Source of the DNA: Narcine bancroftii
Lineage: Eukaryota
Assembly: GCF_036971445.1 (NCBI RefSeq)
Contig: NC_091478.1
Location: forward strand, 10,354,001 to 10,418,000
DNA length: 64,000 nucleotides
Reading direction: 5' to 3'
Shown here: positions 1,190 through 63,722 of the stretch, piece after piece
Numbering within the stretch: the stretch's first letter is position 1
How the letters are laid out: the number at the start of each line of letters is the position of its first letter
Translations under genes and position numbers: made by a program
Notes under the pieces: model-generated
What the model saw: the letters and a program-made list of their open reading frames with translations, nothing else
What the model was told of the DNA's origin: nothing
Databases searched by the model: none

Positions 1190-1840
1190 CTAAAAAGGAG
1201 AAAATAATATTTTTTAAAATTTATAAATTACACAAAAATAGCTTTAAAATCTTACTAATCAAAAGCCGTTAATCCTCCCAATGTCCTTATGATTTAAAAA
1301 TACATAAGAATCTATTCATAATGTATATCATCCAATGCTGTACATAGCCAAATATAAATAGAGAAATATTAAAAGTACAGGGAACAGACTACTTGTAAAT
1401 GTGAATGAGGAGTAGAACTGCTTTATTTTGATCTTGATATTAAGTTTACTACATGCCCACAGATCTGATAAGGGCCTTACTCAAAATATTGGATGCCTCA
1501 TACCACATTTAAATAGAGATAAAATGAGAGTTTATTACCAATTACACAAGTACATACATTACAGATACACCAAAATTCTCACTTGCTGCAGCCAAAAACT
1601 ACAATATGCCAAGGCAGAATAAGAAAAATGTGTAATTTAATAAGATCATGACTGATCTAGTCATGGACTAAGCTCTAGCTTCCTGCCTTTTCCTCTACTT
1701 TGAATACATTGAAAACACATTTTTTACATATTATGTATTTGTGTAACCTCCACCATTTCCTTGGACAGAGAATTCTATAAATTTGGTACTCTGGGGAAAA
1801 GCAGTTTCTCATCCCCATCCAAAACTTACTTTTTCAAATC

Positions 1841-3030
1841 TACATTGGAGATACTGAGCGCAGACTGGGAATCACTTCGCTGAGCACCTTTGCTCCATCC
1901 ACACCAGAGAAAGGAACCTCCCAGTGGTTAACCATTTCAGTTCGGTATCCCACTCCCATACTCACACATCTATCTATAGCCTCATGTATTATCCCACCAA
2001 GACCACCCATAAATTAGAAGAACACCACCTCCAATTTTCCGATTGGGCACTCTCCAGCCAGATGGCATTAACATAGACTTTTCCGGTTTCTGCTAACCTG
2101 CTTTCCTTTCCCCCTCGCTTCCTCCCGTCTTATTTCCCCCCAGCTCTCCACCCCCTTCCTTCTCTATTCACCTAGCCATCCCTCCTCCCCTTGCTTGCTG
2201 CTGTGCTCTCTCTCCCTCCTCCACCTATTACCCCTGCCTTTGCGACCATGACTCCACCTTTAACAAAGGCCGAACAAATCCTCTTGTAGGGTCAATGGCC
2301 ACCTCACAAACACGTGCCATGAAGCGCGGAAAGGGCATCCCTTCAAAGTTTGGTCTGGCCATTCACTCCAGCAAAGCTTCCCCCAGCCATCTTGAACCTC
2401 ACCATGCTGCTGGATCCAGGAGGGGATGTTGAGAGGGTGGATCTGGACCTGTGCAGCCCTTAAATCCATTCACTCACACCGTGTTCCTTTCTGAGAAATG
2501 GGGTCTCCTCATATCAAACCCCACAAACTGAATGAAAGGAACCATAATCATCCTATAGGATGGATAGCAAGAAGAAGAAAAAAAATAACATTTTATACTG
2601 GAATGAATTGCATCCCTGTTCTGCAATTGATTTTCTAAGAAGTAAACTGGGCAAAGTACCTCAGGAAAGTTGTGGGACAAGAGATTTACTTATAAACACA
2701 CAGTGTAATGAAGATGAAAAACAAATCTCAAAGAGTTTGGCTGATTTCATTTGCAGAGCTGATATGCTCAATCTCCTTCCTATCTCCCAGCTTAGTCCTC
2801 CTCTTATCATTTGTCTGCATCTTTCTCTTCCACCCTCTCGCCTGTGCCCACCCAAAATCTCTAGCCTGTGCTCCTTCCCTCTCTCCCCCTTCCCAATCTT
2901 TTTATTTAGGTGTCTACTTGTTTGTTCCTAATGAAGGGCTCAGGCGTAAGATGCCGATTATCATTACTTCCTATAGATACTTCCTATTACTTCCGCCGAG
3001 TTTCTCCAACACATCTGTGTATTCAACATA
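1841..3030 (+). mobile_element. Penelope-like element 3' part (GIY-YIG endonuclease, pyrimidine tract, hammerhead-like end), interrupted
   Basis: Frameshifted YIGDTERRLG.HFAEHL...VVNHF...LEEHHL.FRLGTLQPDGINIDFSGFC* (1841-2096). C/T-rich tract follows, then other sequence at ~2260-2760, then ctaatgaagggctcagg at 2928 and the conserved tail. Confidence 0.7.
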
Positions 3031-3086
3031 ACAAGGGAAGCTGGAAAAGTGTGGGTATTCAGAGGTTATACAAACTGCTGGATATA

Positions 3087-3287
3087 CAGGTAGTTTCCAA
3101 CTTACAACTTATGCGACTTAAGGCCATCTATACATACCACCAAAAAAAACAAAAATACAGCAACCTTACACTACAGCACATGCCCAACTGCAGGAGACCA
3201 GAGGTTAACATACATCCGAATTGCATCCATTTCTAGATCCGACTGGTCCGTCAAAATGGAACACAGATGTATGTCAAGGACTACCTG
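3087..3287. mobile_element. Tc1/mariner (Tigger-like) MITE
   Basis: TA-CAGGTAGT...ACTACCTG-TA: imperfect ~20 bp TIRs with TA duplication. Confidence 0.65.
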
Positions 3288-3434
3288 TACTGATCTTAAA
3301 TGGTCAGAAGGTTTTTCATCCTTTTCCTAAGATTTCAGATGTTGAATATTCAGTGTACATTCAACTAAAATAATGACAAAACAATTAAATTCAATAATTG
3401 AGTACCAATAGCACTGTTAAGCATGTAATATTAC

Positions 3435-3593
3435 CTGTTTATTTGGAAATGCCCTAATGCAACGGGTCTGATACTTCAGACTGGATTCTCTCCTTTGCTG
3501 TACGTAACCCATGTTCCTCAAGTCCCACACCAGTACACGACGGCTAGCTGTTCCAACAATAAGACGATCTCCAGACACAGAAAGCGTGTACAC
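3435..3593 (-). CDS. BUB3: BUB3 coding exon 5 (159 bp)
   Basis: AG at 3595-3594, GT at 3434-3433. Reads [53 protein letters not shown]. Not in the ORF track in this frame. Confidence 0.97.
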
Positions 3594-5819
3594 CTAAAAG
3601 TGAAAGGAAAGGGACAAAAGACAAGAGCTGAACTATCTTCCCTTACAATCATGTGCAACAAGAATGAGAATGTTTTCACTCTTTTTGCTGGGTAAAATAC
3701 AAGCCCAGAAAGATAGGACAATTGAGCAAGCTTTTGACTTAAACTTGGTGGCAGCCATCTTTAGTTGATTAGCTTTTACCAAGACTTCAAATGAGACTCA
3801 TCACATGAAGTAAACCATCTTTATTAATTTAAACTCTAAAAATGCTGTACTCCATTCAAATGTCTCAAGCCCCACATCTGTACAAATTATGTACAGGCAA
3901 GAAACTGCATATAACCCATATTTAAAGTAACATTTGATTATTCAGCAAACAAAATTAGAAGTTTCCTTCTATGCAGTCATAGTTCATTCATAAAGTTTTT
4001 AATTTAAAACAATGGTTAAATATTAATGTTTAAAATTTTTGACGTTAATGAATTCACCTTGCTCGCAAAATTTTCAGAAATAAATTGAAATACATGTCTT
4101 TAATAGATTCACATTCCACTATTTACTGCCATATCTGACAATATTTGAGTAAAAATTCCATTCCTTGTTTCATTTTATACCCTCAAGTGAGAGCATCATT
4201 GCAAAGCACTGCTTTAATGATAAAAGTTTACCATGTAATTTCCTGGAGATTAATTTTGCAGAACAATTTTTTTTCTTCAATGATGCTTTTAATTCTGCAT
4301 TCCTCCCAGGAGATTGCATAGTTGATTGGCAGTCGCATTCTGGAGATTATGAGGAGCAACATGCTTGTCAACTCAAGATAATCTCCTCCTGACTACCAAT
4401 GTTACACATTTGTAGGAAGGTATGAGACAGGATCCTGAAGTCAGAGAGAAGTCTGCCTAGACCACAAAGGTAGTACAGGGGCAGCTACAGCACTTTCTAA
4501 GCCTAGAATTTTAAACATCCACCCCTTGATCTTTTTTACCTTTTCCATTCACTCTCCTGATGCCATTAAAACCTTCCCCACATACAAGGGCTGAGAATAT
4601 CAAGCACTCACAGTCAACTAAATGGGTGAGGAAGAGTCCAGGTCAGTAAGGCAATCAAAAGAAAACCATAAGCAAACCATAATCCATTCTAATTGCCTTC
4701 TCGATGCTTTTTCTGACATTTTGTCAGAAATCAATGAACATTCATTGAGCAAATATCTAAAATTATTCAAAATGGTGTTAATGATGCAGAGCTTCAATCT
4801 TCCAAATTATCAACACAATTTGATGTCTTCTGTGAACTATACAAATAATCTCCTTTCATGCCCTCTAAATCATCAAGATTGGAAACCCTAATTATTGACA
4901 TCTATCTTTTCACTTCCTTTATGTTCTATACAAAAACCTCAACTTTTTCAAACAATCCTGAATGTAGCAGTTTATTCATTTTAACCAGTATAGTTCCACT
5001 GTTGAGTGAAGATACTGGGAGGCCCTATTACATCGTTGAAAAGATTAGAAATCTAATAAACAGGATGTACATGAAAATAAGATGTGTGATGATCAAACAA
5101 TGTTTCAAAAAGTCACTCATTACTTTTAAAATAGAGATAAGCAAAACAATACTGCAGAAGCATAGACATTCCCAAACGTGGATGTGCAAGGAATCAAAGC
5201 TTAGTGATAGATAATGAAGAGCAAATATTTTTATTAAAAGTTCAAACTTAGTTTTAACACTCGTAATTACTGCACAGAAAAACTACTGGGGATTGGAGAA
5301 AATGACATTAAAATGACCAGAGCAAAGAAGATTAAAACAGTTGATTTCATGGACCTTGATGAGTCTCAAAAATGTACAACACTTACTTTCAATTAAAGAA
5401 AAACAGAAATGGCAAAGACAACAGCAGGAGAGTAACTTGAATGTTGCCAATAAATATGGAGAAATAGCCTTCATGCTTCCAGATGTTGACAAGTAGAGCA
5501 TAAAAGTTTGGAATGCACATAAAGCAAATTTAAGTTCATCCTTGTGGCTACGGAAGTCATAACAGAAAGTATTTTATTTTTAAATCAAAGTAGAAAAGTT
5601 CAATTAAAAACCACCAACATGCAGAGCATAGAGTGTAAACAACGTCAAGAGACTGGAAACTTTACGAAGGTTGGAAGACAACAGAAAGGACAGAGACATA
5701 GTATCTGCCTGTGGCAACAAGGTCCACAGACCCTCTGGTTGAAGAAATTTCTCCCTGTCTCTGTTTTAAATTGGTTCTTTTACCCTGAAGATGTGCTCAC
5801 AGTTTTGGTCGCCGAACTA

Positions 5820-6250
5820 CAGGAAGGAGAGGGCAGAGGAGGTTGACAAGAACGTTACTGGGGTTTCAGGGTTGGAGTTACAGGGAAAGGTTGAGGAGGC
5901 TGGGACTTTATTCCCTGGAGCGTAGAAGGTTGAGGGATGATGTGATGGAGGTATTCAAAATTATAAGGGGGAAGGAGAGAGTCAATGGGAATGGGCTTTT
6001 TCCACTGAGAGTGGGCAGAGATTCAAAAGGGGAAAGGTTTAGGGGAAACATGAGGGGGAATTTCTTCACGCAGAGGGTGGTGGTGGTGTGGAACAAACTT
6101 CTGGCAGTGGTGGTAAAAGCGAGATTGGTGTTAGCGTTCAAGGAAAGGTTGGATAAGGTGTATGGACAGGAGAGGTGTGGAGGGTTATGGGTGGGAGGAG
6201 ATGTTCAGCATGGTCTAGAAGGGCCAAACTGGCCTGTTTCTGTGCTGTCG
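5820..6250 (+). mobile_element. CR1-type LINE 3' end
   Basis: ORF2 C-terminus SYRERLRRLGLYSLERRRLRDDVMEVFKIIRG...GNFFTQRVVVVWNKL, followed by the gggcc..tggcctgtttctgtgctgt tail. Confidence 0.85.
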
Positions 6251-7813
6251 AGGGTTATATGGTTATGAATCAGAGTATGAAAGGATATCACACATATCCA
6301 ACTCTTGTATCCAAAAAGCACAAATGCCTTTCTTACTGATCTATTTCGATGTAATAGAGTCAGCGTTCCAAATTTAAAACCTGAATAAACATGGCAGCTT
6401 TTATTTTACTATTTTCAAATAGTGACTCATTTACCTGATATTGATGAGCCACAATAACAATTGTACAAAACTAAAGGCAATACAACACTTACGCCAGAAG
6501 GAAACAGAGCAGTATGCTCCACATGCACAAGGAGTGTTAAGGAATAGAGTGAAGGCCGACAAACCAATCTCCATTCTGACCTTTCACGCTCACATGCCCT
6601 GGGAATATAATTTGCCTCAGTTAAGTAGAACTTCAATTTTTTTTTCAGTGAAAATTGTGTGCTTCTTCATTCAATCACTGTGAAGGCCTCAAGATACTTT
6701 TTTTCCCCCCAGTATAACCCCTGACTAAGCTGATCAACATGGCCCAACAAGGACTTGGACAACTCTGATTCCAGAAAGTCATTGACAATCTGTGAAGCCC
6801 CATCCCAAGATTTACTAAGTGTTAAAGCTGTCATCAAGACAATGTTTATGATCACTGGAAATTCAAATATTTAGCACTTGGGGTACTTAAAACAATTGCA
6901 TATAACAAATTAAAATAATCCAAAATTAAATCAGTAAGTTCATGAGATAGCCATTTCTTCCTGTTGATTTCAAGGTGACAGGGCACTTACACTGCTCTAG
7001 TGCAAGATCAGTAAATAAGATGCCCCACTGGAAATCTAAGGAATTCTACTATAGTTTTGTTTGCTGGAAATTTGTTAATGCATAAAATTTTAAAGAACCT
7101 TCACAGCTAAAGCCAATTAATGCACTCTAGTGAAGACACCATGCCATGCCATTCCAGTTGGAAAGCCAACATCTCAATGTATATTCACACATTAGCAGTT
7201 TTTGCTGAATTCAAACTTATAATCTAAACTATTGATATAAATTATATACAATGCATGCGCTTCTTTGAATGACTGGCTGTCGGGTATTTTCCGCATTGCA
7301 AGTTTGATATTCCCAACTCCTATGCATTCATAAATCAAATGAGAGAGCTGATAGGTCATGCAGATTCTGCCAGTCTACTCTGCACACATTCATCAGGAAC
7401 AGTATTACTCAATCAGATAAAAGAAACTGATGCCATAATGAATTCCAGTGAACCAATAAACAGTTTCATCGACAGTGCCTGTCTGTTCCACTCCATTCTG
7501 TCATAGATTCATCACTGGCTCTTGGAACTGAACATGCTATAAATCATATCCTCATTCACCACAACCTATTTTTGCTAAACAAAGATCTCACTTAAAAAAA
7601 ATAGACCAAGGATAATGGAATAGCTTCATAACCAGTTAGTAAATATTGCAGTAAATAGCAATGTAATAACAGAGCTTAGGCTACGAGGTTATTTTTCAAC
7701 ATTGTAACGACAAATTGGAACCTTATTCATATGATTGCTTGGAAAAGATGAAAATTACTTAGACAATGAAAAATATCCCTCCCTTTCTGATAATATTTAA
7801 GGTTCAACTAAGC

Positions 7814-7943
7814 CAATGTTTTTCAAACTTTTTCTTTCCACTTACATACCACCTTAAGTAATCCCTTACTAATCACAGAGCACCAATGGCATATGGATTA
7901 TTTAAACTGGTATTTAAGTGGAAAGAAAATTTTTAAACCACTG
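7814..7943. mobile_element. hAT (Charlie-like) palindromic MITE
   Basis: Long imperfect TIRs (caatgtttttcaaactttttctttccac ... gtggaaagaaaatttttaaaccactg). Degraded 8 bp TSD aactaagc / cactaagg. Confidence 0.7.
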
Positions 7944-8649
7944 CACTAAGGAAATACAAAACTAATTTTCCACATCATACCCGCTTTCAAAAAGAAAACA
8001 ATAAATAAAGAACCAGTAATTTACTCTATTTTCATTGTTGGTCAAATGCATGTAGACTCCACTTGGAGTTGAATCAACTTCCCCCTTCCAAAACAAAGGG
8101 ATTCTTAAAATGTTAGGTCGAATAAAATTCCTCAGTGCTAAGGAACACACAAACCATCTCATCTTTTTTCCTTTAGGATGATGACTGTTACTGCAGCTGC
8201 ACCGTTTTCTGGACATGTTCAAATTCCTAATACTTTAACCCCCACGAGCAGTGAGAATGAACAACCAAAGGAACTGCTCATACTAACCATCCAAGACTCT
8301 CATTTCTATATACAAATACTTGACCTGCATATATATGGTTTGTACGTGTTCTATGTCTGGCTGTGTCTGCCTGTTTTGCCCTGAGGACGGAAGAACACAG
8401 TTTTGTTGGGTTGTATTTGTCCTATCGGATGACAATAAACTTGACTTAACTTGAAAATTATTCTACAATAGGAAACAAGCCTTTACATTTATTTGTTTTT
8501 TTTAATACATGAAATCGGAAACATAATCCTATTATACTCATTACTTTATGCAAAGATATGATGAACTTTCAATGTACCAAAGCAATTGTACTTTCATAGC
8601 AAAATCTACACAAATGCAGAGGAAGATCAATCAGTCCATGTAGAGAAAC

Positions 8650-9150
8650 ATGAAAGCTGCAGATGCTGTAATCTCGAGCAACGAATAGCCAGAGGAACTC
8701 AGTGGGTCAGACAGCATCTATGAGTAGAAATGGGCAGTCAACATTTCAAATCTGGGCCCTTTATCAAGACTACAGGGAAGAGGATATTACATAATGGGGG
8801 GGGGCGCTGGGTGTGAAGAAGCTGGGCGAAAGACACAGAGGTAGGGCAGTAGGTGTGAGAGGTAGAGGGGCAGACCGCCAGGAGAGGGATTGAAGTTAGA
8901 AAGAGGGGGAAAATACTGAGTACAGAAGTAGGTTAAGAAGAGATTGAAACAGTGGACTAGGTGGGAGTTATGTTTAATTAGTTTTTAAAAAATCAATATT
9001 CAGGTCATTTGGTTTAAGGCTAAACAGGAGGAATACGAGGTGTTGTTCCTCAATGTTACATTTAGACTCACCCTGATAATGGATATGGTCAAGACAACAT
9101 GTCACTGTAGGAATGGTGGAAGGGTTTTAATAGTTGGCTAAAGAAAGTTC
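8650..9150 (-). mobile_element. Penelope-like element 3' part (minus strand)
   Basis: Minus strand reads EEQHLVFLLFSLKPNDLNIDF (GIY-YIG tail), then a pyrimidine tract, a hammerhead-like motif at 8773-8734 and the conserved tail. Confidence 0.65.
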
Positions 9151-9194
9151 AAGTTTAGGCTCACCAAACGTAGGTTGACGTCACAGATTAAGGG

Positions 9195-9715
9195 GATCAC
9201 TTTGCTGAATACCTACACACTGCCTATGGATATAAACTTGAACTTACTGTAGCCAGCCATTTGAACACCCCCACCTCCTTACAATCACATTTCTTTCCTT
9301 GGCCTCATCCTTGTCAGGTTGAGGCCAAACACAAATGTGATATTCCTCCTGGATAGCTTTATAAATCTAAGGGCATGAAAATTACTTTTTCTAATTTTAG
9401 GTAAACCCCCCCCCCCCCCACCCCACATCAATCGAGATCCGCTGCTTTTATCTCTTTATCTGCTCCTGAACTTAATTATTTTTCTCCATCTTTTCTTCAC
9501 CCAGCAACCCCTCCCCATGGTCTTTCACTTTCCCCACTTCTCCAACTTCTGACTTCTGTCTTTATCACCTCGTAGTCCCTTCTCCAGCTCCTTCCTACTT
9601 TATCACCTTCTTTCTTTAAGTCTTATCAATAAAGGGTCCAGACCGAAACAATAACTGACCATTTCTACTCAGCTGCTGTCTGACTTCCTGAATTCATCCA
9701 GCAATTTTTCATATC
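9195..9715 (+). mobile_element. Penelope-like element 3' part (plus strand), head-to-head with the previous copy
   Basis: cactttgctgaatacct (HFAEYL), gtagccagccattt (VASH), C/T tract, agggtccagaccgaaac at 9633-9649, conserved tail. Confidence 0.6.
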
Positions 9716-10191
9716 GATCATGTTTTGCCATTTCATCACTGTTGATCATTAAGAGTATCCACAATCCCTAATAAATTTGCTAAAGACTGTTTGAAAAATG
9801 TCTTTTCGAGGTAAAAGAAATTTAATTTTTCTTCACCATGCAAAAAGAAACTTTGACATCATTGCTGAATAACCCAGCTCTAATTTCAAAATTATGCCTC
9901 TTTGTTAGACAAATTAAGATGGCTTAATTTGTCAAACAAACGTTTGAAATACTTTTATGAATTTACCTACACTGGGGGAAAATACAGCTTGGGATCAAAA
10001 GATTTATTATGCCTAACAATCCAACCCACTTCTAAAGTCAGGCTTAGATCATTACAGCACAGAAACAGCCCCCTTCAATCATTACATTTTAAATAACTTG
10101 CATTTTTAATATTAAAAATGTTACAATCATACATTTGGTTGTATGGTCTTCAAAAGCCAGGTTTTATGTAAACTATAATGACCCTCCATAC

Positions 10192-10343
10192 CCTTTCTGG
10201 TTGTGCGAAGGTCCCAGCATTGCAAGGTGTTCTAGGATCCCACAGCTTGACTGTTTGATCCCAACTTCCTGTGACCATTACGTTCACTTCTGGACAGTAT
10301 TCAACACAACGAATTGAAGCATCATGGGAACCAACAACTGATT
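10192..10343 (-). CDS. BUB3: BUB3 coding exon 4 (152 bp)
   Basis: AG at 10345-10344, GT at 10191-10190. Reads (E)SVVGSHDASIRCVEYCPEVNVMVTGSWDQTVKLWDPRTPCNAGTFAQPER. Confidence 0.96.
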
Positions 10344-11319
10344 CTATATATAAAAAAAAGAAATTAACTGAACCATGCTTTGCATGAAGTGAAACATTGA
10401 AAGTTTGCAGATGCTGTGATTGAAGTTAAAAACACAAAAAAGCTGGAGGAACTCAGCAGGTCTTGGCTTCCAAAGCCACATGGCCATGAGACCTGCTGAG
10501 TTCCTCCACCATTTTTGAGTTTTTACTATTTGCATCAATGATCCAAGGTTTGCCCCTTGTCATAAACTGAGCATATAGTTGTAAGGAAAGCAAACATTAA
10601 AACTTCACTTCTGTCATGGTTCACATTTTAAAAGGTTCTTGAGATAAAACATAGTGATAAAATATGCAAGGAACATTTAATTTTTCCATTACAGTAATAT
10701 ATCATGGAATCTCAAAGCACAAAACTAGTATAAATAGTCATCCATTAATTTTTAATCCATTCCAATCTGCCAATACCTGGAGTTATTCTTATTCACAATT
10801 TGTTTACCCAGAAAATTCAAAGGCAAATCAAATATTTTTTTTTAAAATAAGCATCAAATATGATTTGCAGGTGAAAGATGAAACTGTTTATGGTTTGGAA
10901 TTTAACTAATCCAAATAATTTTTGAAATATTCCTTGCCTTATGCATGTTAAAGAATAATCTCATAGGAAATGCACTCATTAAATTTACTTTAAAAAAAAC
11001 TATGAGCTTTGTTGAGCTCATACTGATTCAGTGACATCAATGTTAGGTGTTTATAAATTAAACTAGAGAGAGTTCAAAAGAAACTGAGAATCTGTGGCAC
11101 TAATGTTGCTAACTTCACCACCTTAATGGGAGTCAGACTGGAAAATCTGAGGGATTTTATTTGGAGCAAGTTTAAGAGATGGTTTTAAATAGGATAAAGT
11201 GAGAAAACCTATTCATGACATTCAAAATTCCTTTATTGTCATGTAATAATACAGAACATCTAATAATTCTATCACATTATGCATCTCTAAGGAACATGAT
11301 TAACGTAAACATTTCTCAC

Positions 11320-11389
11320 CTTGGTCTGTGTTTAAATCACGCATTTTCAGTGAAAGATCCAAACCTCCACTCCATGCATGAGTTGGGTC
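11320..11389 (-). CDS. BUB3: BUB3 coding exon 3 (70 bp)
   Basis: AG at 11391-11390, GTGAG donor at 11319. Reads DPTHAWSGGLDLSLKMRDLNTDQ plus 1 nt; phase 1 fits exon 4. Confidence 0.95.
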
Positions 11390-12189
11390 CTATTTGCAGG
11401 GAGCAAAAATAATTAATTGTTGCCCAATCACAAACCAAAAACCCTTCGGTATTGCAAATCTGAAATAAAACAATGCTGGGAATTCTTAGCAATTCAGACA
11501 ATATCTGCGACGAGAGGAAGAATCAAAATTTCAGATCAATGATGCTTCAATACGATCAGTAAACAAACATATTTTAGATGAAAATGGAATGGCTGGAGAG
11601 AGAAATACAGAATCTTGTGACAGAATATTTTTGTCTCTTTTGAACTACAAAGGTATTAAAGAGGGTAATTTTTAGTTGCAGATTATATTAATGGCAGATG
11701 GTAACAGAAAATAAAAGAGAAGGTGGAGGTAAGAGATGAGAGAGATAAAGAAATTAAATGTTGCAAATCTTCAAAATGAGATAAAAGAATTGCAGGATCT
11801 TTGGAGAAAGGACAGTTAAGACCTCTCCAAATAGGAAGAAATTATACTACAGTAAATGAAATGGCATTTAAAAAATACTAATGTGCAAGATGTCACCATT
11901 AGATATGTTGGGGCTGCTCAAACCATGAAAATTGAAGAGAAATTGAGGGGGGAACCCCACCCAAAGCATTAAAAAAAAGAATTGCTCCCTCCAGTAACTC
12001 CCTGACCTGCATTCTGCAAGTTCTATTTCTAAATTGGCATACAAGTTAAATTTTAAAAACTGAACACTTTCAATAAGCCACCACCATCCATGTTGTATTT
12101 GTTTTAAAACTTTCCTTACATTTTTTAAAATGCACCTACTTAAATTTAGCTAAAAGATCATAATACAGAATAGTCACTTTTACAGACAA

Positions 12190-13070
12190 TAAGTGCAGGA
12201 GTAGGCCAAGTGGCCCTTCGAACTAGCACCACCATTCATCCACAATCAGTACACTGTTCCTGCCTTCTCCCCATAACCCTGGACTCTGCTATCTTTAAGA
12301 GCTCTATCTAACTCTTTCTTGAAAGATCCAGAGAATTGGCCTCCACTGCCTTCTGAGGCAGAGCATTCCACAGATCCATAACTCTCTGGGTAAAAAAGTT
12401 CTTCTTCAACTCAGTTCTAAATAGTCTAACCCTTATTCTTAAACTATGGACTCCCCCAAGATCAAGAACACACTTTCTGCCTCTAGCATGTCCAATCCTT
12501 TAATCAGATCCCATCTCATCCTTCTAAATTGCAGTGGCTTCAATCTTTCAACATATGACAGTCCTGCCATCCTGGGAATTAACCTCATGAACCTACACTG
12601 CACTCTCTCAATAGCAAGAATGTCATTCCTCAAACTTGGGAGACCAAAACTACACACAATACTCTAGGTATGGTCTCATCAGGGCCCTGTACAACTGCAG
12701 AAGGAACTCTTTGCTCCTACACTCAACTCCCCTTATTATGAGGGCCAACATGCCATTAGCTTTCTTCACTACCTGATGTACCTGCATGCTTACTTTCAGT
12801 AACAGATGAACAAGGACCCCTAGATCTCATTGCACTTCTGCTCTTCCTAACTTGACACCATTCAGATAGCAAACTGCCTTTCTGTTCTTGCCACCAAAGT
12901 GGATAACCTCACATTTATCCACACATTAAACCGCATCTGCCCACTCACCCATCCTGTCCAAGTCGCCCTGAATTCTCATAACATCCTCTTCACATTTCAC
13001 TCTGACACCCAGCGTTGTGCCATCTGCCAATTTACTAATGTTACTTTTAATCCCTTCATCTAAATCATTA
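12190..13070 (-). mobile_element. CR1-type LINE ORF2 3' fragment
   Basis: LRNDILAIERVQCRFMRLIPRMAGLSYVERL, with the typical CR1 3' end near 12190-12260. Confidence 0.85.
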
Positions 13071-15769
13071 ATTTTGATGTCTGGTAAAGGATTCCATGAA
13101 AACTTGGTTTATCTTTAACATTTTTCATCTCCTACTAATTCATGCACTAAGAATTCAAAAACAATTATTTATATTTAAATTACAGTTGCTAACGCTGCAC
13201 TTAGAATAATTGGTAAAGAACCGCAAAGCATTCGATTCATTATTGAAACCCTATTTTAACCACACCATTTGCTCTAAATAATCTTAAAAATTATGACCTG
13301 CTACAGGAGAAAATTATAAGTCATACTGATGTCAGTTACCGGGAGGCACACAGGAGCAGCACAGGGATATTTTTAGTTCCCCAAGGCCTAAAACAGACAC
13401 TGCAGCAGAGAATGCACAAAGGAATAAAAGAAGAGAATGAAATGTGAACTTGTGCTGCTCCAGAGAAAATGCAACCACCTAAATAACAATCATTAAAATT
13501 TTCAGGCACAAACATGTACGGAGTGAAAATGAATGAACATGATTGCTGTATGTGTAAAAACAATGTCTGTGCAATCCTCTTGGGCAAAACAAATTATTTT
13601 ACAACAGAAAAACAAGATACAAGTACATATATTCAAAGACATGCTAATTATAGTTTTTAATTAATAAAATAGTCATGCCGATTCTTTTGTTACAGGCAGT
13701 ACCCAGGATGAAGACAACCGATTTACGAACAACCCATAGTTATGAACCAGCAAGTCAACTGGAAGTAGAATGGTGTCAACTTCGGGTTTGAGCATGGTTG
13801 AGTACAATTTAAATTCAAGTGGCACCTCCCACCCGTTCTTTCCCACACAGTCCCCATCCCACCCCCGCTCACCCGGATGTGATCCCCCCGCTCTCCGCTC
13901 CGACGCAGTCCCATCCCCACTCGCTGATCGGACGCAGCCTGGCCGCCATCCTGACATGGTGTTCTTTTCCCCCCACCCACCCACCATCTATCAACTTCCA
14001 AAGGTTCACTTCTCCTGTTTCATTCTTGGATTTTTTCTAAATATAGTGAATACTAAACAGAATATGATCCATATATACTCTCCCTCCCCCACTCACTTGC
14101 CAAAGTAATCCTTTATAAAGTAGCTTCCAGCACTTATAGGTGAATTTCCAATAAAACTGATGTGACAGTGATATGGTAGTCAAAGACTGGCTATAGAATT
14201 CTAATTTGCTTTGCTTAGAGATCAATCTTTGATTTTCTTATGTACTGTATTATGTTTTCAAAAGTGTTTTATATGCATTGAAAGGTAAAAATATATACTT
14301 TTCTAAATATGCTATATAACAAGATAAACATTTGCCTAATTGACACTAAATATGGACCATATGTACTTTTTCCATCTTACAAATTCAAGTTAAAGACAGA
14401 CCTAGATAACAGAACACGTATTTAACCCAGGGGCTACCTGTATCTTGGTGAATTCACAAACACACAATGCATCATAGGTATCAAGCTGTAGATATGCACT
14501 TTGTAGCTTCAAACTAAATTCATGCATGGGACATTCCTCTCCTTCTAGAGGTCAAATTAAAAATGGATCAAGTACAAAAAACTTCATAAACAACATTGAA
14601 TCATTAATTATATTGTAAATATATTTAGAACAGAGACACAGGAAGGAGTTTCAATGCTCAGCAGAAAAATAATCAGTAAATGAAAATCTGATTGGATTAT
14701 CAGAAAACCACTTAACTGAAATTCTCAGTTATTCGAAAATGTTTTAAGTTGAAAAAAATATTTTCTTAAATTTATGCATTTATCTTATTATGAAAGCAGA
14801 GATCACATTGTTTTTGGTCAGAATTAAATATTACTTCATGCTTGAAAAACCTGTTGTTTTTTCTTGTTTTTTTTAACCGCTGATATCTGCTGATACCACT
14901 GGGCTACTTAAAGCAAGTTATCAGTTATCCGAAAAATCCAGTTAACCAAAACACATCCTGTCCCAAGCATTTCAGGTAATTGGAAATGTAGTGATTGATG
15001 AAATAAGAAAATGCAAAAAGCAGTCAACACATTCGGGTAGAGTTGCTGACGGTTCTTCAACCCGAAACACAGTTTCCCTTTCCACAGAAGCTGCATGCTT
15101 CAAGCATTTCATTTTTATTTTTTCCATTTTGCATCTTTCAGGGTACTTCACAGACAAAAAAAAATTCATCTTTTGAAATGTAGTTATTGTATTGTTGAGA
15201 ACCAAATTTCAACAAAAACATCCAAAAAATAATTGCTTTACATAATAAGATGCCTATATTTATCTCAATAACATTTTGTTTCTTTTGCCATGGCTCCCCT
15301 AAGCTACTGCGAAAATGTAAAATTCTCAAAAGCACAGGCACAATTTAACATTTCATCCAAATTAAAAACCTCTTTGCATCATGTCTGCACTGTATAAAAT
15401 ACCAGTTTATATTTTTGTACTCTAGTCACTACATCAGAAGAATTTCAAAGGAAAGAATTCTCAAAAGTGCTCCTAATGCATTAGAAAGATTATACTGAAT
15501 TAAATAATTAAAGGAATTAAATAAAGGATGACAGGATAAAGAAACGATAAATTTTGGAAGTCTAAAATGTACTTGCACCTCAAATCTTAATCTACTTCCC
15601 AGAAGTGGAATTCAATATGTGGGTGAAAGATGAAGAAAACAGAACAGCAAAATGATGGCCAACAAATGGAACAGAAAATAAATCAGAGGGCAGAGGCAGC
15701 ATAGATTCTGGAAGGGCAGGACATGTTTCACAAATTCAATGAAGTTCTTCAGACAGAATGAGCACAATG

Positions 15770-16130
15770 GCCGAGAGGTGCTTACATTTTCAAACCTGCT
15801 GCATAAAAGATAAGGATCATAAAGTTAAGTGTAATGTATTAGAATGGAAGGCAGAGGCTTCAGGACAATGGATGTTTTTTTGCTTGGCAATCAGTAGGGA
15901 GCAGAGTGCCGTAGAGTTCAGTGCTAGGCTCATTACTGTTCACACTTTCATGATTTGGAAGAGGGGACTGAGTGTAGCGTATCCAATATACCAAATGGGG
16001 AAACTGTGTGGAAGATGTGGAGAATCTGCAGAGATACAGATAGTTTGTGAGTGGGCCGGAGACTGGCAGATCGAGTACAATGTCAATGTCATCTACTTTG
16101 GAAGAAAAACAGTCGATGAGATCATTATTT
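15770..16130 (+). mobile_element. Decayed CR1 reverse-transcriptase fragment
   Basis: Remnants of SVLG, DLEEGTEC and EWAGDWQIEYNV motifs across frames. Confidence 0.6.
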
Positions 16131-16355
16131 AAATTAATGATTCCCAAAGTGGGCACTGCCACCCCTCCTCCTGTGGGCAGTGGAAAGACCAAGGAGTCGG
16201 TGAGGAAAAAGGGGACTGTCCGAACATTCCATCTTGTTATTTTTGTTTGCTGCAAAGTTTAACCACCAAAAGCATTTTTTTTCCACTCAAAACTAGTAAA
16301 CATTTTCCAAAGGTACTAATCACGATTCAAAGATGACATAAGAGATAGATCTTAC

Positions 16356-24641: not shown

Positions 24642-24759
24642 CACTCAATCTTCATGAAGGGTTCTAATTCAAAACGTTGACCATTCTTTCTCTCTCCACT
24701 GAGTTCCTTCAGCAGAGTTTATCTTAATTCCTGAATTACAATTCTAAGATCCCTCTGAA

Positions 24760-30450: not shown

Positions 30451-32704
30451 CAGGATGTCAACTTGAGCAGGAGAAATTGCAAAGGGTAGATTTAATTTTA
30501 GACTTTTTATCTGTCCAGTGCAATACTGCACAGGAGAAAGCCGTTAGGTCAGTTAGAGTTTTCCGTTCAACTTTATATTTTGCAGCTTTGGTGGTTAATA
30601 TTTGTGGAGCTTTAAGACTGATGGAAAGCTGCTACATTTCGAGTTCGCCTCCGGAGGAAGTTTTAATGAAATTGAAACAGGGAAACAAGGATGGTGTCAA
30701 CAGTATTAAAATTAACATTTAATGCATTATAAATGGAGATTTTGGTGTTATCTGGTATAATCAGGGCCTCTGTGCATTTTAACCACGTTACGTTATTCAC
30801 AACGCAGTTCATAAAGACGTGTTGGAAGGCAATGCTCATTATTTGAATCGGACCAAAACCTGCACCTTTCGTTTTAAGTTACGCATTTTTGGGGTATCAG
30901 TAATAAATGGATGATGTATTTGTGTGATACTCTCTCAATTCTGCCAATAAAAGGCGCTCTCCTTACACCACATTTTTTTTCTTGCTCTCCACATGCAGTG
31001 AAATATTATTTGCAAATAGAACGTTTCAAGATGATATCAATACCGGTTGCGATATTTTTATTTAAATGGAGGTTATGTTCCTTATTTCAAAAACTTACCA
31101 TTTTGCATATTCAGTTCCACTCCGATCTGAGGATATTTTTTGATTATTTTGGGAATAGTAACGAGTAATAGTCGTTACTTCTGTCATTCTGTGACGTATA
31201 GACACGTTACAGCTCAGGATGGGACTGTTCAGCCCATTGAGTCTGTGTCAGCTTCCAGTCAAACCATCTCACGAGTTTTACTCCCCACTCCTACGTTACT
31301 TTTTAATTTTGATTTTAGTGTATTCGATTTTTAATAAATGTTACATTTAAGCAATAAATTAAATATATAATGGTGTGTTGCAGCATTTAACTTGATTCTG
31401 AAATATTTGATTTATTACTGGTTTCGGAGATCATAGCAAAATTTGAAATTATGATCGAATAATCTAACAGGAGACAATAGTTAATTAAATGAACATTTGG
31501 TGCGCAATTACGCAGCATATAGGTGGGAGTTCACACTAACTTCTTGGCAAAGATCAAAACATGCTTAAGGCATTTCATAATATGGTAAACATTCAGCAGT
31601 ACTTCCTTCCAACTGTTAATTAAACAATATTACATTTCATTTAGACGATAAATGTTGTACCAGTTTGATTTATGCTAGTGAAATATATTTCCATCGCATA
31701 AGCAGGTACAACGTCCAGTAACCAGTCATTTTTAAATGATCGCACCTCATGATTTCACTGGCAGTTGATGGCATTGAGATAGTTCATTTAGAATTTTTAA
31801 GTGAACTGTACCTAAATAAAATGGTTATGTGTGAATTCTAGCTTGTCATATAAGCGTAAAATATACGAAAATATTTTCAAAGTTACTCTGGCAGTATCCA
31901 TGATTGCTTGCAGGATCAAGAAATTGTATACGTACTGTTAATAAACTGTTATAAAACATATCTCGAAGTTATTTTCAAGAGAGCTGCTACATTATATTAT
32001 TTATAGCCTATCTGGGACAATTGATTCCAGTCCATATGGTTACTTCAACAATGCAGACATTGGTTTTGTTCTATTAATTAAAATTGTCATTTAGTTAACG
32101 TAAATAATGAAATGGATTTGAACATGTTTGCAGCCGGATTAAGTAGCGTCAATTTTTGATTTTATAGATTGAATTACCGTTTTCTAACCGTTTAATTATA
32201 CCGTAAATTAATCTTTGCCCAAAATTGTTACTTCGAAAGTGTGCCAGAATTTATTTATCTTTAAAAAAGGTACCAGACTTAAAACCTTTTAAAAATGTTT
32301 TGAATGTCTTTAATTGCGTTACTGACTTTTCTCTCAATGTTGTTGGTTTGTGGTTAATTGCTTGAGATCTCGAGTCAAGTGATGAGATTCTGAACTGTTA
32401 GCTATAAAAATCCTTGGTACAAAACGCCACGGTTAGGTGATAACATTCAGATAATGTTGTCTTAAGCAGCCTTTCACCCAATGCTCTACTTCAACTTTAA
32501 ATTTCATGTTTTCAATTTATTAATGTTCCCTTGGAACAAAATATCCTTAAGTAGAATTATACGTGCCACACACACCTGCCTGTATTTCCTGATGCAAAAC
32601 TATAACAACCGTTATTCAATAAATGTTGGTTTCTTTCCTGCGAATAAAATAGCACTGAAGTTTTGAAAGCCAACCACGCACAGCGTCAGCCTGCACTTTA
32701 TTCG

Positions 32705-32830
32705 TTCTCTGCCCTGATGCAGGGTCTCCACAAGAAAAGTAAACTGTCTCTTTCCCTCCACAGACGCTGTCTGTCCTGTTGATTCCTCCATCAGATTTTG
32801 TTGCACCAGATCGCAGCATCTGTTTTCTGT
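32705..32830 (+). mobile_element. Short Penelope-derived (hammerhead-tail) repeat
   Basis: ccctgatgcagggtctccacaagaaaag...gctgtctgtcctgttgattcctcca...cagcatctg. Confidence 0.55.
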
Positions 32831-35270: not shown

Positions 35271-35949
35271 CAGTGCGGAAATTTTGAACTTTACACAAGC
35301 GAAGGGATGATTAGGTTAAAGTAAGTACCTGATTGATTGTTGTTGTTTGTAACATTATAAACATATTCTTACTTTAGAAGAAAATGATGCCGTACAGTGA
35401 GACAATAGTTACGGCCCAATAAGCGCACGTGGTGACATTCATGGGTTTGGTGGTTTTATGTTTTAATGAACGATAAGGCTGCAGTATAGGTCACTTGACT
35501 CTGTGAGTGTCTTCTGAAGCACTAAGTAGTTGGTGCTCAGTGGAAATCAGCAAACGGGGCCATTAATAACGACAGCATTGTAAAGGGAGTTCGATTAAGT
35601 TGATAAGGTGGGATAGTCACAGGTCAGAACATTTGGAAAATCTTTATGCCAAAATTTAAAAGAAACTAATCGAAAAGGAATCTATATTTCAAATATCCTT
35701 CCGATTGTATTTTTGATCATGTGAAAATTGGGAGAATTTTTCATTCCAGTCTGACAGATCTCTCTCGGTCTGAGGCGTTCCTTCTGTTTTTACAGTGTCA
35801 ATGCGAACATTCGTGGCTCTGGCTGTGAATGGAGCAGTCGTGTAATCGGCAAATGTTACGTTTCAATAATGGAATTGATTCATAGAATGGTTATTTCTGG
35901 GGGGGGGGGTGGATGGGAATGCAAATTCTATGGGGGTGGGAAAGGATAA

Positions 35950-36075
35950 GCCACGTTTCGGGCCTGAGCCCTTCAGTGCCTCTTGCTTCCCCTGTAGATG
36001 CTTCGTGACCTGCTGAGTTTCTCCAGCCCCTTTGTGTATTGCCCGAAAATCACAGCGTCTGCAAAGTTTCTCCTT
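35950..36075. mobile_element. Short Penelope-derived repeat with an internal inversion
   Basis: Minus-strand tgaagggctcaggcccgaaacgt fused to the plus-strand tail gacctgctgagtttctccagc. Confidence 0.6.
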
Positions 36076-44307: not shown

Positions 44308-44967
<660 letters not shown>

Positions 44968-53462: not shown

Positions 53463-53769
53463 GCACCCAATGGTACTGTCAGAAGGCCCATAGTGGAACT
53501 ATTTTTTTTTCTCTATCACAAATACTCCCCTCTCTGCTGTCTCTTCTGCCTCTATCTTGTGTGAAGAGTTCACAAACTTCATTGAGGTTGAGGCTTCAGC
53601 TTTCTACTGCTATTTTTCTCTCTTTATACAGACCACCAAACTAAACTTCCAAGATCCTTCGCTGCTTGATGTAAATTTATGTCTTCCTCAAGTCCCGACC
53701 CTATCTTGCTAGTTCATCTTTCTATTAGAAGTTGTCTGGCATGTTCGACCAAACTTGCCTTCTACTAAA

Positions 53770-53985
53770 GCAAACAATCAGCTGTTGGAGGAACTCAACG
53801 TGCCAGACAGCATGCACGGGTAGAAATGGTCAGTCAATGTTTAGGGTTGAGATTCTATATTGAGACTAAATCTCAGTAAAAGTTCTTGCCTCAAAGTGTT
53901 GAGTGACTGCTTTTACCCATGGATGCTCACTGGCCCATAGAGTTTCTCCAGCAGTTCTTTATTTGCTCAAGATCCCAGCATTTGC
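53770..53985. mobile_element. Head-to-head inverted pair of Penelope-derived short repeats
   Basis: ctgttggaggaactc...agacagcat ... atgctc...gagtttctccagcag. Confidence 0.6.
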
Positions 53986-54279
53986 TTGCTACTTAACTTC
54001 TTTTCTGATTGATAATGTTAACAAGTTTCTTTCTTTAGACTCTGTTCCCTATCTTCTTCAACTCTGCCATTGAAGCTCCTCAAAAACCAAACCACGCAAT
54101 GTGATATAAAAGTCAGAAATTGCTGGAAATACTCAGTAAATCAGGCAATATTTATGGAAAGAGAAACAGAATTAGAATTCCACATCAGAGACACATCAAG
54201 CAATGTGATTTTTATTTTCTATCCAAAGACTTTAAATGTATTGTAGACTCTTAAATCCATACATGCCTTTTCCTGTCTC

Positions 54280-55420: not shown

Positions 55421-57359
55421 AATGGCTTGAGCAAAAGTAGTTGTGTCTATAGCAGCAAATATCCTAAACTTGTAAAGTCCTTGCCTAAACCCTCTGTTCT
55501 GCATCTCAAAAATCATATGAACTTCCAAATTTTGGTCATTTCCCTTCAGATTTCTCATATAGTTCAGTGTCAAATGCCGTTTGATTACGCCCAGAACCAC
55601 TTGGGAGCATTTATGTTTCGTTAGAACCACCTCATAAATACAAATTATTCTTGCTGCTATTAGAACCGCACATATTAAACGTTACTTCCAGAGTGGAGCT
55701 CTTTTAGATTAGGTTAGAAAGGTAAATGAGCAAAACTCAGTTGCACATGATTAATGGCACAAAGCACGTCATTTAAAAAGTATAAAATATTTAACGAAAG
55801 TTAAATGGAACATTTACTCAGTTTAATTATAGAACTGAAGCCTCTCTTCCGCTCTTCAGGACAGACAGGGATTATTAATTTCTGATACCTACCTGTTTTA
55901 TTTGATCTTTGCAGATATGCAAATGTAAATATTTGCTCTCTGACAATCTAGCACATTAATTGTTTAGGGAAAAGATTGCTTGCTTTGCGCTTAGCATTAT
56001 ATTTCTGAGATCTTTACTTTTGAAATGCTGCACCAGTTAAGCTGTGAAATGATTCTATCAACCATTTCACATGCCACCTAAAATAACATGCATTTTTCAG
56101 GAATTTTCACTTCAATCTGAGCAGTCCAATAAACTGTTCATCGAGCCCATGACAACACCATCGTGCCCACTGTTGGAATGAGCAGTATGAAGTAACAATG
56201 ATGGATCAAAATAGGTTGAAAATTTTTAAGTTGCCTCCAATTTCCTCATTGTTTGTTCCTGCAACAAATGCCCACAATCCACTCCATAATTTGCTTTTTT
56301 TGTGTAGATAAATCTTACAAATCACCAAAACGGCTCACAGGCTAGGAAATAAGTGCATTATTTTTATTGTGACACTAACGTATAGGAAAAGCTTGAAGTC
56401 CCAAGCAATTCTGAAAATCAAAAACGATGGTTAAATCCAGGAGTATTGACACCAGCTGATGGCGTCACCGTTCTCTACACCACATTCAACCATATTTGCA
56501 TGATTTTGTTTCGAAACAGAGCCATGCTGACTTTCCTCATGGATTGCCATTGGCATTGGTTCTGTGTCATCTTGTCTAATGTGTTGCATTCCTCTTGACT
56601 CTACATCTTTTTTTTTCCTGCTTAAAATGGAACATAAAAATGTCACTATTTTAAAACCAGACTATCCCTGAAAACTGCCATTATCTGTGCGCGTACTCCT
56701 GCCTTTTTTTCTGCTGTCTAATGTAGGTGACTGTAATGAGGGGAAATGGCAACGGGATGGTTTTGAACTATAAAAATGGGGTGATATGGGAATATTGAAG
56801 CCCTGCTGTGATGATAAGTTACTGACAGTAAATCAATTCATTCACTCTGTCCACTCTTGCAGAAGTTTGCTGAACATTGACATCAATGGACATTTTTTAA
56901 ACAAAAATGAAAGATTCAAGAATGTTGATTTCTGATATGATTTTACTTTTTGTTTGAACCTATTTTTCTCTGTCTAAATATAACCAACCACCTGCAAAGT
57001 ATCTGTGAGCAGCAGTTGTCTTCAGAATCTCACTCAAATAGCTGTGCCTCACACACAAGGCTGGTAGTCAGCTGGAAAGGCCAAGCCTAAAGAGTCAAAA
57101 CCATTTGACCAGTCCCAACATGGAGGAAAGACTAACATTTGCCCAACGATGCTCTGTAGTACATTTGATTGTACAAATCAAATTAAGAACAAAAACAGAT
57201 GTCCTATTTACCCCAACACTGAATATTTTCAAGCAATTCTGAGAAAAAATATATAGTATCATTATTTTTTTTCCAACTAATGTCATTAAATTTTATTTTT
57301 TAAATGTAGGAACCTCTCAATGGCTAAAAATACAAACATTTGGAATTTCCCAGGTTTTG

Positions 57360-57470
57360 GTAACCCTGATGAATGGTTTCAACCAGAAACATTGCCTTCC
57401 ATGGATGCTGTCTAGCATGTTGAATTCTTCCAGCATTTGGTGTGTTTCTCCAGTTTTCCAGCATCTCTTT
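57360..57470 (+). mobile_element. Short Penelope-derived repeat with an intact hammerhead core
   Basis: CTGATGA-A-TGG-tttcaa-CCA-GAAAC at 57366-57390, followed by the conserved tail. Confidence 0.6.
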
Positions 57471-59478: not shown

Positions 59479-59979
59479 GGCTATATTATGGTGGGCCCAG
59501 CATGTTGCCTGTGGTTGCTACCAATGTGTTTGCCCAACCAACCTCACCTTTTCTAGATGGCCACATCAGCTGAGTCTCCATCCAAGAGATGGTCATGAGG
59601 CTGAGCAGGTTCTGAGCAGGGCCCCTTCCTTCGGAAGGCCCCTTCCTTCGGAAAATTCAACTAGATTTTGACAAACGAGGATACATTCTCATTTGGTCTC
59701 CAGCTCATCCAATACCACTGTGTTTGGCCAGTGGAAGCTGAGACATTAATGACTGATAGCTGGCGGTTCCCTGCATAACCAGCTGCTGTCAGTCTGCTAA
59801 ATATTGCAAGTTTGCTCTCCAGCTTTTTCTACTCTCCTTGCCTTCTTATTCTACAGGTACTGCCTGATCTGCTGAGTGTTTCCAGCGTTTTCTGTGAGTA
59901 TGTAAAAAATATTATGTAGGTTAGATAATGCCTAGATAATTGAACTTCCTCTATGTTATTTGGTCATTGATTTCTATAG

Positions 59980-60365: not shown

Positions 60366-61799
60366 AAGATATTATTGTGTTTATCCCTGAAGATTTGATG
60401 GTGTCTCTGAATAGGATTGGACCAAATCAAAGAGGAAGTAGGATTCATATTATGTTTTTATGAGGCAAAGATTGTACTAAATAATCCAAATGAGCTTCAG
60501 TTACATTGAGCTACTCGCATGCTGCCGGGAATATACTTCCTTTCCTGGCTTTTGCCTGAAAATGATTGTGGTAAGTGCTGGAATATTTTCTATTTTTGTA
60601 ACTGGAATATCTGTAAGTGCCACATTAGAACTGATACTAGAGATTAATATGAACAACATAATTGGATAACACGACATTTTAAACACCACTGAGACCTTTT
60701 ATTGGGCTGGTGCAACTAATCATTGCTGCAGATTCAAACAGCAGTTAGTCTTTTGAAATGTTAAAATTTCTGCATCAATGCAAGCTTGTAGGAGATTATT
60801 CCCATTCAATTCATTAGATACATTTTGTGACTGTGTTTTATTTTTGTTAAATATGTATTTTCAAGAAACTGGATAATACATGCAGATGATGTTAAACAGG
60901 AAACCTGACGTTCTTGCACTATACATCAGGATTAGTGTAGTCAAGAACCTAAATGAACTTGTGTCTTTGTTCCCATTGCCTAGATGCAGATTGAATTTAA
61001 ATGTCACATCTGTGTCTATACGTAAGAGTGGTGGCAGTACTGGTAATGGTGTTAAACCTTCTCAGATAAAGTCCGGTTCCAAAAGCTTGCTGTGGTTTAG
61101 AAATACATATTTAACAAAATAGAAGTTCATGGCATATTTTCTTATGACATAGGAGACCATTTCTCAGAGCACATCAGTTGCCATACCTCCACAACTTGTG
61201 ACTTGTATTTCATCACATGGCCTGAGAGTTTCAAGATTCAAGATTATTTTATTGTCATGTAATAAAACCAAAAATGTGATATTACCCAAAAATTCCTTTC
61301 ATCTACTGTAAGGCACTCAAAGATTCCCTATCAGCATAAATTGCCCAGCACCCCTTGCAGCCAGAGAAAGAGAAATCCATGGCTTCACTTCCAGCATTCC
61401 CACAACCTCTGCAACCACACAGCCTTCAGTCTAAACCATCAGCAGCTTGAGCTCCAGATGCATACCTATGACACGAACGGAAAATCTTCAGCATCCTTGG
61501 CACCCTCTCGCATTCCAGTTCTGATAACTGGTACCCCTTCAGCTACCTGCAGCCTGATATGAGTCCCTTGATTGTAGTCACCTATAGCCTATGTGGGTTC
61601 CTCACCTCCAGTCACCAAAAGTCTGGCGCCTATGTGTTCTTCAGCCTCTGAGCCCCTCACTGGTCCGCCGCTGTGGTCACCGTTCTTTGGATTCCTTCCT
61701 CTGCATTGAGGACCCTTTCTACCTTGTCTCCTTTCTCACAGACATGATAAATTCTACCTAATTCCTTATCACATCCAACTAATACCATTTGTTGGTCTG

Positions 61800-61900
61800 G
61801 ATTCCTCCCCCATTGTTTGAATTCTGAGACTTTCTGATATATCCTGGTCCTGCCTTTTGTTATTTTTCCATGAAGAAGGGCTCAGGCCCGAAACGTCAAT
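61800..61900 (+). mobile_element. Penelope-derived repeat end with near-consensus hammerhead motif
   Basis: Pyrimidine tract, then aTGAAGA-AGGG-ctcagg-CCC-GAAAC-GTC (61870-61897). Confidence 0.6.
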
Positions 61901-63574: not shown

Positions 63575-63722
63575 TAGCCAAGCATCATCAATGGGGGAAA
63601 GGGAATTGTTGACATTTCGACATGAATACCTTCATCCGTTTTGAAGGGTTTTTACATGAAACATCAACAATTCCTTCCTCCCTGGAGGTGCTGTTTGACT
63701 TGCTGAGTTCCTCCACCAGCTT
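63575..63722. mobile_element. Head-to-head inverted pair of Penelope-derived short repeats
   Basis: ggaattgttgacatttc...ccttca / tgaagg...gaaacatcaacaattcc, then tail gacttgctgagttcctcca. Confidence 0.6.

Follow-up and report, generated by a model that had tools for sequence, protein, structure and literature searches.

Metazoan Penelope-like elements (PLEs) are known to carry minimal hammerhead ribozymes (min-HHRs) in their pseudo-LTRs (pLTRs), described by Cervera and De la Pena (2014, PMC4209133). The motifs in the N. bancroftii genome share with them a type I topology, a palindromic 15.2-16.2 in place of stem III, one additional nucleotide that separates 9 from 10.1, the G10.1-C11.1 pair and the pLTR location, mostly as single motifs in truncated copies. 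According to the same account, cleavage by PLE minimal hammerheads is weak and requires dimers. It also reported, for Schistosoma, a U3-A8 variant like the smaller lineage found here, which, unlike the published motifs, probably had a C at position 4, as judged from CpG-type decay. The available text of that survey neither mentions U3·G8, the dominant core here, nor names cartilaginous fish. In the active hammerhead fold, C3-G8 is a Watson-Crick pair (PMC3884650), and U3-A8 is its natural, active covariant (Perreault et al. 2011, PMC3088659). The C3-G8 to U3-A8 covariation is shared by the copies described here, and a U3·G8 family does not appear in the accessible part of that catalogue of core variants. 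In the literature searched we found no family with a U3·G8 core, a provisional result since reports of small PLE hammerheads may already describe it, and no dedicated paper on PLE hammerheads in sharks or rays, for which supplements of published surveys may list motifs. Provisionally, then, the U3·G8 family core is what is new here, scattered single PLE minimal hammerheads being already known (PMC4209133).

The Neptune-type EN+ PLEs (Craig et al. 2021, PMC8557442) share with the carrier of these motifs an RT followed by a C-terminal GIY-YIG endonuclease, a CX2-5CxxC linker, heavy 5′ truncation, partial tandems, an adjacent inverted truncated copy and a tail extension. The Poseidon element PAc from Anolis (Frangieh et al. 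2024, PMC11167929) also has a pLTR hammerhead upstream of the tail, and its insertions also read through the ribozyme. The ribozyme of PAc needs the protein of the element and is dispensable for insertion in vitro, while the protein cleaves and extends both strands with internal initiation. Unlike PAc, which has a C3-G8 core and an ORF beginning within stem II, the element reported here has a U3 core and a leader of about 0.9-1.2 kb between the tail and the first match to the RT protein. The non-LTR retrozymes (Cervera and De la Pena 2020, PMC7229834; Li et al., bioRxiv 10.64898/2026.07.22.740005) have in common with our copies a type I hammerhead, an origin from PLE pLTRs and short noncoding copies. 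However, they are described as tandem units of about 150-450 bp with at least two complete ribozymes and circular RNA, whereas the copies here are single or head-to-head, 3′-nested and broken. We consider the repeats to be the decayed pseudo-LTR 3′ ends of an autonomous PLE with a minimal type I hammerhead (probability about 0.88), likely 5′-truncated and often head-to-head by-products of reverse transcription, and not a separate family.

The window, meaning the whole 64-kb stretch of DNA analysed, was searched with a profile built from 30 genomic copies. Of the 20 matches found with E values up to 10, 16 had E <0.01, while the reversed window gave six matches with a best E of 1.7. This bore out the dispersed family and layout proposed in the initial annotation. 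Nine of the ten places that it listed were profile matches; the remaining one (15046-15067) was recognisable by eye alone. They were not ten independent copies, however: the 8.7 and 9.6 kb places belong to one insertion as its two arms, and head-to-head units also lie at 36.0, at 63.6 and probably at 15.0 kb. The tail motif occurred four times in the window with up to three mismatches (expected 0). The sequence CTGATGAAGGG, with two mismatches, was found 24 times in the window against 17.9 +/- 4.1 by chance, which is no excess. A descriptor allowing C or U at position 3 recovered no complete hammerhead core in the 64 kb, so the earlier statement that most copies carry core mutations was true but too mild. 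This whole-window count is independent of the rows of the core table that are out of register through indels (both 53.8 kb rows and the plus-strand rows at 9.6, 15.0 and 63.6 kb). With Rfam covariance models the window gave no hammerhead match up to E 5, and 17 better-kept loci, canonical-core copies included, gave none up to E 10. No tandem array of the motif was found in the window, and its repeats are ordinary transposon debris.

Three matches in the window keep endonuclease sequence, and two of these form one insertion. The inverted arm (8644..9164, minus strand, E 6.6e-50) includes a remnant of the GIY-YIG endonuclease C-terminus (9166-9000), a pyrimidine-rich UTR, the hammerhead and the tail. 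Its hammerhead (8734..8773, minus strand) is a decayed minimal form of the U3-A8 lineage with the box TTGATAA. The 6 bp stem I attributed to this copy is indeed there (6/6 pairs), stem II keeps 3/4 pairs, counting wobbles, and the palindrome is broken by CpG decay. The forward arm (9181..9711, plus strand, E 2.2e-46) has an endonuclease remnant (9181-9379), UTR, a broken hammerhead (box TCAATAA at 9626) and tail. The two hammerheads are thus the outer ends of diverging arms. The third endonuclease remnant (1839-2071) is followed by part of the UTR (1839..2247, plus strand, E 1.8e-80), and further along the same strand lies a 3′ UTR with a broken hammerhead (box CTAATGA at 2928) and tail (2780..3056).

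The other copies are shorter. A head-to-head pair of tail-only fragments without hammerhead (10389..10531) had been missed by the initial annotation; its two arms form a near-perfect hairpin that drew a spurious Rfam plastid match. The very decayed copy without a profile match spans approximately 15015..15110 and is probably head-to-head. On the plus strand, a short copy (24646..24720) begins at the hammerhead and has a broken core (TTCATGA, AAAA), and in an old copy (32698..32824) both core and stem II are broken. The head-to-head unit at 35937..36071 has only the tail in its plus arm; in the minus arm (35975-35937) the box is missing its 5′ part, and position 17 is G. Another head-to-head unit, of the U3-A8-type lineage (53765..53985), had also gone unlisted, and both of its arms begin at the hammerhead. 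Tail-only fragments lie at 54102..54167 (minus strand) and 59849..59900 (plus strand). The short copy at 57358..57459 (plus strand) is the sole copy in the window with CTGATGA; it has 4/4 stem II pairs, as had been noted, and a broken palindrome and stem I. Its TGG/CCA stem II had been read as a compensatory change and is better put down to chance, since by hand count T at 10.1 was matched by A at 11.1 in 11 of 100 copies listed (of 374), against a background of 5/59. A 3′ UTR with hammerhead at 61696..61900 (plus strand) has lost stem I, lacks the tail and has A at position 3, but the stem II, GAAACGT and GUC triplet ascribed to it are all present. The last copy is a head-to-head unit (63578..63722) with both cores broken and a weakly matching minus arm (E 3.6).

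Several PLE fragments lie inside introns of a minus-strand WD40 gene, which we take to be BUB3 (about 100-16500, exons near 160, 1096, 3527, 10272 and 16451). Two tandem homeobox genes (33241-33801 and 44308-45640, both minus strand, Pfam Homeodomain), presumably HMX2 and HMX3, have 139 N between them (39710-39848), and a promoter-like GC-rich stretch was seen near 30000-30400. A second dispersed family, MITE-like, has long inverted repeats (7800-7937, 29633-29811, 59120-59483). Decayed protease- and RT-like frames (26237-27467, plus strand), for which Pfam was blank, lie between direct repeats about 2.1 kb apart (25417-25546 and 27535-27663) and look like a small broken LTR retroelement. Possible transposon ends are a 56-nt inverted pair 1.16 kb apart (41388-41443, 42600-42655) and a 159-nt direct pair 4.2 kb apart (18909-19067, 23155-23313), the latter bracketing a 231-aa frame (19994-20689).

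The link to PLEs made in the initial annotation is upheld by the position of the motif, which follows the end of a PLE ORF. Within 600 nt downstream of endonuclease ORF ends, it was present in 37 of 49 cases, mostly at 150-250 nt. We also sampled 60 evenly spaced 10-kb stretches (600 kb) of the genome, which gave 97 core-profile matches (E 0.05; none in the reversed control) and 28 endonuclease matches, and in this sample 20 of 26 endonuclease ends were followed by a hammerhead motif. Conversely, an endonuclease was detected within 700 nt upstream of 14 of the 46 hammerhead-spanning matches, and downstream of one. The ORF at one locus (L069) was 40% identical over 92% to an 806-aa protein (P0002) with the precomputed labels PF00078, PF01541 and PF26215 (RT and GIY-YIG). 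A genome search with P0002 returned 63,629 candidates; among the 56 that were scored are copies that cover residues 74-795, each interrupted by stops, and none has an intact full-length ORF. For this reason the master element is one that we infer from broken copies. Local Pfam scans of 12 broken ORF pieces recovered neither the RT nor the GIY-YIG family, so that the domain names are those of the P0002 labels. A longer homologue was found for a 273-aa endonuclease piece, and none for a 123-aa piece. The CX2-5CxxC motif is visible upstream of GIY-YIG in the ORF pieces and in P0002, and points to Neptune or to Nematis, which has it as well, this motif alone deciding the clade call.

A single ORF with RT and C-terminal GIY-YIG, partial-tandem pLTRs, 5′ truncation and inverted 5′ copies, all features of EN+ PLEs, were found. 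In 21 of 30 leader-bearing loci (hand count) a same-strand pLTR piece lay directly upstream, which makes the unit a partial tandem of the kind usual for PLEs; one locus (L175) has a hammerhead in both pLTRs. It consists of a pLTR (UTR, hammerhead and conserved tail), the leader, the RT and GIY-YIG ORF, and a pLTR again. PLE 3′ parts cover 20.7 of the 600 kb sampled, and the 85 tail-reaching matches among them extrapolate to about 4.7e5 fragments genome-wide. Four presumed-RNA contig sets contained many related pieces, contigs that show neither transcription, ends nor strand. At another locus (L265) the 5′ end of a PLE copy, upstream of the leader, abuts telomere-like hexamer repeats.

The initial annotation gave AGTC-CTGATGA as the shared consensus, but only one of its ten copies has CTGATGA. 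Genome-wide (3.33 Gb), AGTC-CTGANGA-AGGG-N6-CCYRAAAYRT had 63 matches and the canonical core pattern 219 exact matches, while a stricter pattern that leaves positions 3, 4, 7 and 8 unspecified had 2,401. Among the 100 of these 2,401 matches listed (hand counts), position 3 was T in 95, C in 3 and A in 2; the T3 matches had G8 in 83, A8 in 11 and C8 in one, and the canonical box occurred once. In random genomic DNA position 3 was T in 45/57 and C in 9/57. Matches with a GTC/GAC stem I differed in composition: by hand count of 100 of 389 listed, 40 were U3-A8, 34 U3·G8, 8 C3-G8 and one C3-A8, with 17 others. The family core is UUGANGA rather than CUGANGA. At the family level a canonical CUGANGA with a Watson-Crick 3-8 pair was not found, and U3-A8 was limited to a smaller lineage. 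A C3U change lowers hammerhead activity, and the U in place of C at this catalytic position likely made cutting weaker in this family. A separate canonical C3-G8 family was considered and is not evident: the 20 copies retrieved of the 63 with AGTC-CTGA had mixed tails, with an endonuclease upstream in one, and the six C3 copies in the tree described below, five of them picked for C3, were scattered among U3 copies. An older C3 family may have existed.

A tail-based subfamily split left 46 of 83 copies without a group, and lineages were therefore taken instead from a midpoint-rooted tree of 79 copies built from endonuclease DNA alone. A 16-copy clade (support 1.0), which includes both the 8.7 and 9.6 kb arms, had T3 in 15/16 and A8 in 12/16 copies. 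The 63-copy clade (support 0.967) had T3 in 55/63, G8 in 55/63 and A8 in 2/63. The U3-A8 association was visible by lineage only; in unselected copies A8 accompanied U3 no more often than it did C3 (p 1.0). Position 4 of the 16-copy clade was T in 8 and C in 6 copies, and position 5 was G in 7 and A in 6. Since these two positions decay like a CpG, the master of this clade likely had C4, and the boxes TTGATAA and TCAATAA of the window arms are two decay products of its positions 4-5. Among 80 long copies, the best nearest-neighbour identity was 87%.

Conservation was compared between four endonuclease-defined lineages, whose endonuclease DNA is 64-85% alike. Columns with the same base in every lineage made up 57% of the endonuclease and 27% of the UTR, and the two strands of stem I had 1/6 and 1/7 identical columns. 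In the core and first three stem II pairs 18 of 22 columns were identical, the variable four being N7, position 8, position 17 and one CpG-decayed site. The expectation that CUGANGA/GAAA is conserved above its flanks thus holds in the lineage comparison. Fixed across lineages were G5, A6, A9, G12-A14 and U16.1, and position 17 was C or U. A tail motif 40 nt downstream of the ribozyme (model columns 740-761; for example 36007-36027) was identical at 19 of 22 columns. Being conserved as strongly as the core, the tail is a candidate second element, perhaps an initiation or protein-binding site.

Covariation was scored in 83 copies chosen without the core pattern. The covariation in stems I and II on which the initial reading depended is present. 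In stem II pair 4 there were 50 C-G and 11 U-A copies (p 2e-5), and in stem I pair 2 there were 39 C-G and 12 U-A (p 7e-4). Both sides of stem I and of stem II pair 4 change between lineages. Over the whole structure 73.3% of cells were paired against 70.9% after shuffling, a value reached by none of 500 shuffles. The whole-structure covariation score was modest (reached by 35/500 shuffles), and pairs with two-sided change were matched by 482/500. The covariation counts reflect few lineage-level events, not many. At the family level, covarying stems I and II, a palindromic 15.2-16.2, the extra base before 10.1 and the NUH site support the minimal type I hammerhead with an ACGU palindrome replacing stem III that had been proposed for these repeats. 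Individual copies show no selection, core bases being lost through CpG decay. Core CpG sites are gone in about half of the copies, and those at 11.1-12 and 15.2-16.2 survive in 13/83 and 19/83. The canonical core is intact in 0/83 copies and the U3 core in 5/83, with none intact in the random part (0/21).

Conservation of a hammerhead shape need not mean catalysis, since the tail is as conserved as the core. A motif that has lost cleavage in the successful U3·G8 lineages and is kept as a protein-binding or initiation signal, or as a promoter, is a serious possibility that we rate somewhat below even odds. The wobble replaces what is a Watson-Crick pair in the active fold (PMC3884650), and ribozyme-dead mutants of the lizard PLE insert in vitro (PMC11167929). 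In silico, a least-decayed copy adopts an inactive fold with G5-G8 paired to the palindrome, and energy-based co-folding of monomers and homodimers, a method that cannot model the catalytic fold, did not produce an active dimer. That elements begin at the cleavage site was considered and rejected. Only one of 21 partial tandems, the near-full element L186, begins there, while 15/21 extend 5′ of the upstream cleavage site, and the short copies have no 5′-end peak at it (5/97 at columns 697-699). Such read-through fits little cleavage, but equally a re-ligated circle, as a cleaved and re-ligated circular template would also yield read-through copies in the model of PMC4209133. Against lost catalysis, position 8 varies only between bases that pair with U3, position 17 is C or U, and the fixed G5, A6, A9, G12-A14 and U16.1 follow the pattern of a catalytic core. 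That the most successful PLE lineages have long spread with a U·G wobble 3-8 core that still cleaves, slowly or assisted by protein, is a more tentative proposal, less likely than not.

The initial annotation suggested a separate non-autonomous, SINE-like or retrozyme-like family, with short ribozyme-bearing copies that are transcribed by themselves and mobilised in trans by the PLE. We find this improbable, as the copies are 3′ pieces of the autonomous element, nested at that end. Their 5′ ends run continuously from inside the ORF to the tail, with most insertions keeping only the last 100-700 nt. Coding sequence is admittedly absent from most copies, 32 of the 46 random hammerhead-spanning matches having no detectable endonuclease upstream, which counts against truncated 3′ ends of an autonomous element. 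There is also a sharp rise in 5′ ends at the ribozyme. In 97 short unselected copies, left after 79 of 176 matches were excluded (either chosen by a pattern or of low score), model columns 651-690 hold 52 of the starts and 601-650 hold 4 (the core starts at 671), and 27 of the 85 random matches start in one 20-column bin at the 5′ edge of the ribozyme. Given this bin and the 32/46 without endonuclease, a short non-autonomous unit would look alike. In addition, non-LTR retrozymes are reported PLE derivatives, also in one chondrichthyan (bioRxiv 10.64898/2026.07.22.740005).

However, the pile-up is a 40-nt hump in a continuum and not a single site, and one defined 5′ end with a lineage of its own, as in SINEs, was not found. 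Six of 21 long leader-bearing copies start in the same hump (columns 654-676); it would thus be a spot at which reverse transcription preferentially halts or joins, or else a place where transcripts begin. A seemingly fixed start at leader-query position 23-25 was discarded, as a deletion carried by the query copy had produced it. The tails found on the short copies are those of several ORF-linked lineages. Retrozymes are by definition tandem repeats with canonical type I hammerheads (PMC7229834), and tandem units with at least two complete ribozymes were not found here, the window having no array and direct tandems making up 2 of the 85 random tail-reaching matches. The orientation of the latter was head-to-head in 19 and tail-to-tail in 3. 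Target-site duplications of 12-15 bp were seen in about 4 of 34 head-to-head pairs, with up to 12 bp in the control. At one locus (L145:1405-1577) three hammerhead heads follow one another as direct repeats at a spacing of about 47 nt, which may be the seed of a minisatellite. Domestication of the window copies as host ribozymes on WD40 gene or neighbouring homeobox transcripts is hardly credible: copies at 2.9-15 kb do lie between exons of the minus-strand WD40 gene, and intronic hammerheads have been domesticated in amniotes (PMC6155905), but the copies have no complete core, occur in both orientations, decay through CpG and reach a density (16 matches in 64 kb) of the same order as in randomly sampled DNA, where 600 kb gave 97 at E 0.05.

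If the repeats are decayed 3′ ends of an autonomous PLE, the protein of the element would begin reverse transcribing close to the tail, where the target is nicked, and in some cases would do so on both strands. Both-strand priming, as shown for the lizard PLE (PMC11167929), would account for the head-to-head units. The cDNA may often stop, or join a partner, within the self-complementary hammerhead. Master elements would be under selection for a hammerhead-shaped core, with U-A as the tertiary 3-8 pair of one lineage and a U·G wobble in its place in the lineages with more copies. The U3·G8 form is likely a slow, dimer- or protein-dependent cutter, or else a structural element. Neutral decay of the genomic copies would have followed, and we predict them to be inactive.

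Cutting by its hammerhead may not be needed for a PLE to move, as the sole purified PLE inserts without cleavage (PMC11167929). The U3·G8 family, with its estimated 4.7e5 fragments, beside a U3-A8 sister lineage, is a natural matched set for the cleavage requirement. If the wobble core does not cut, the fold is kept for a purpose other than catalysis. If it does cleave, searches that fix C3 or a Watson-Crick 3-8 pair miss very large families, and the family and its U3-A8 sister together would document in nature how a tertiary catalytic pair passes by drift through a wobble state.
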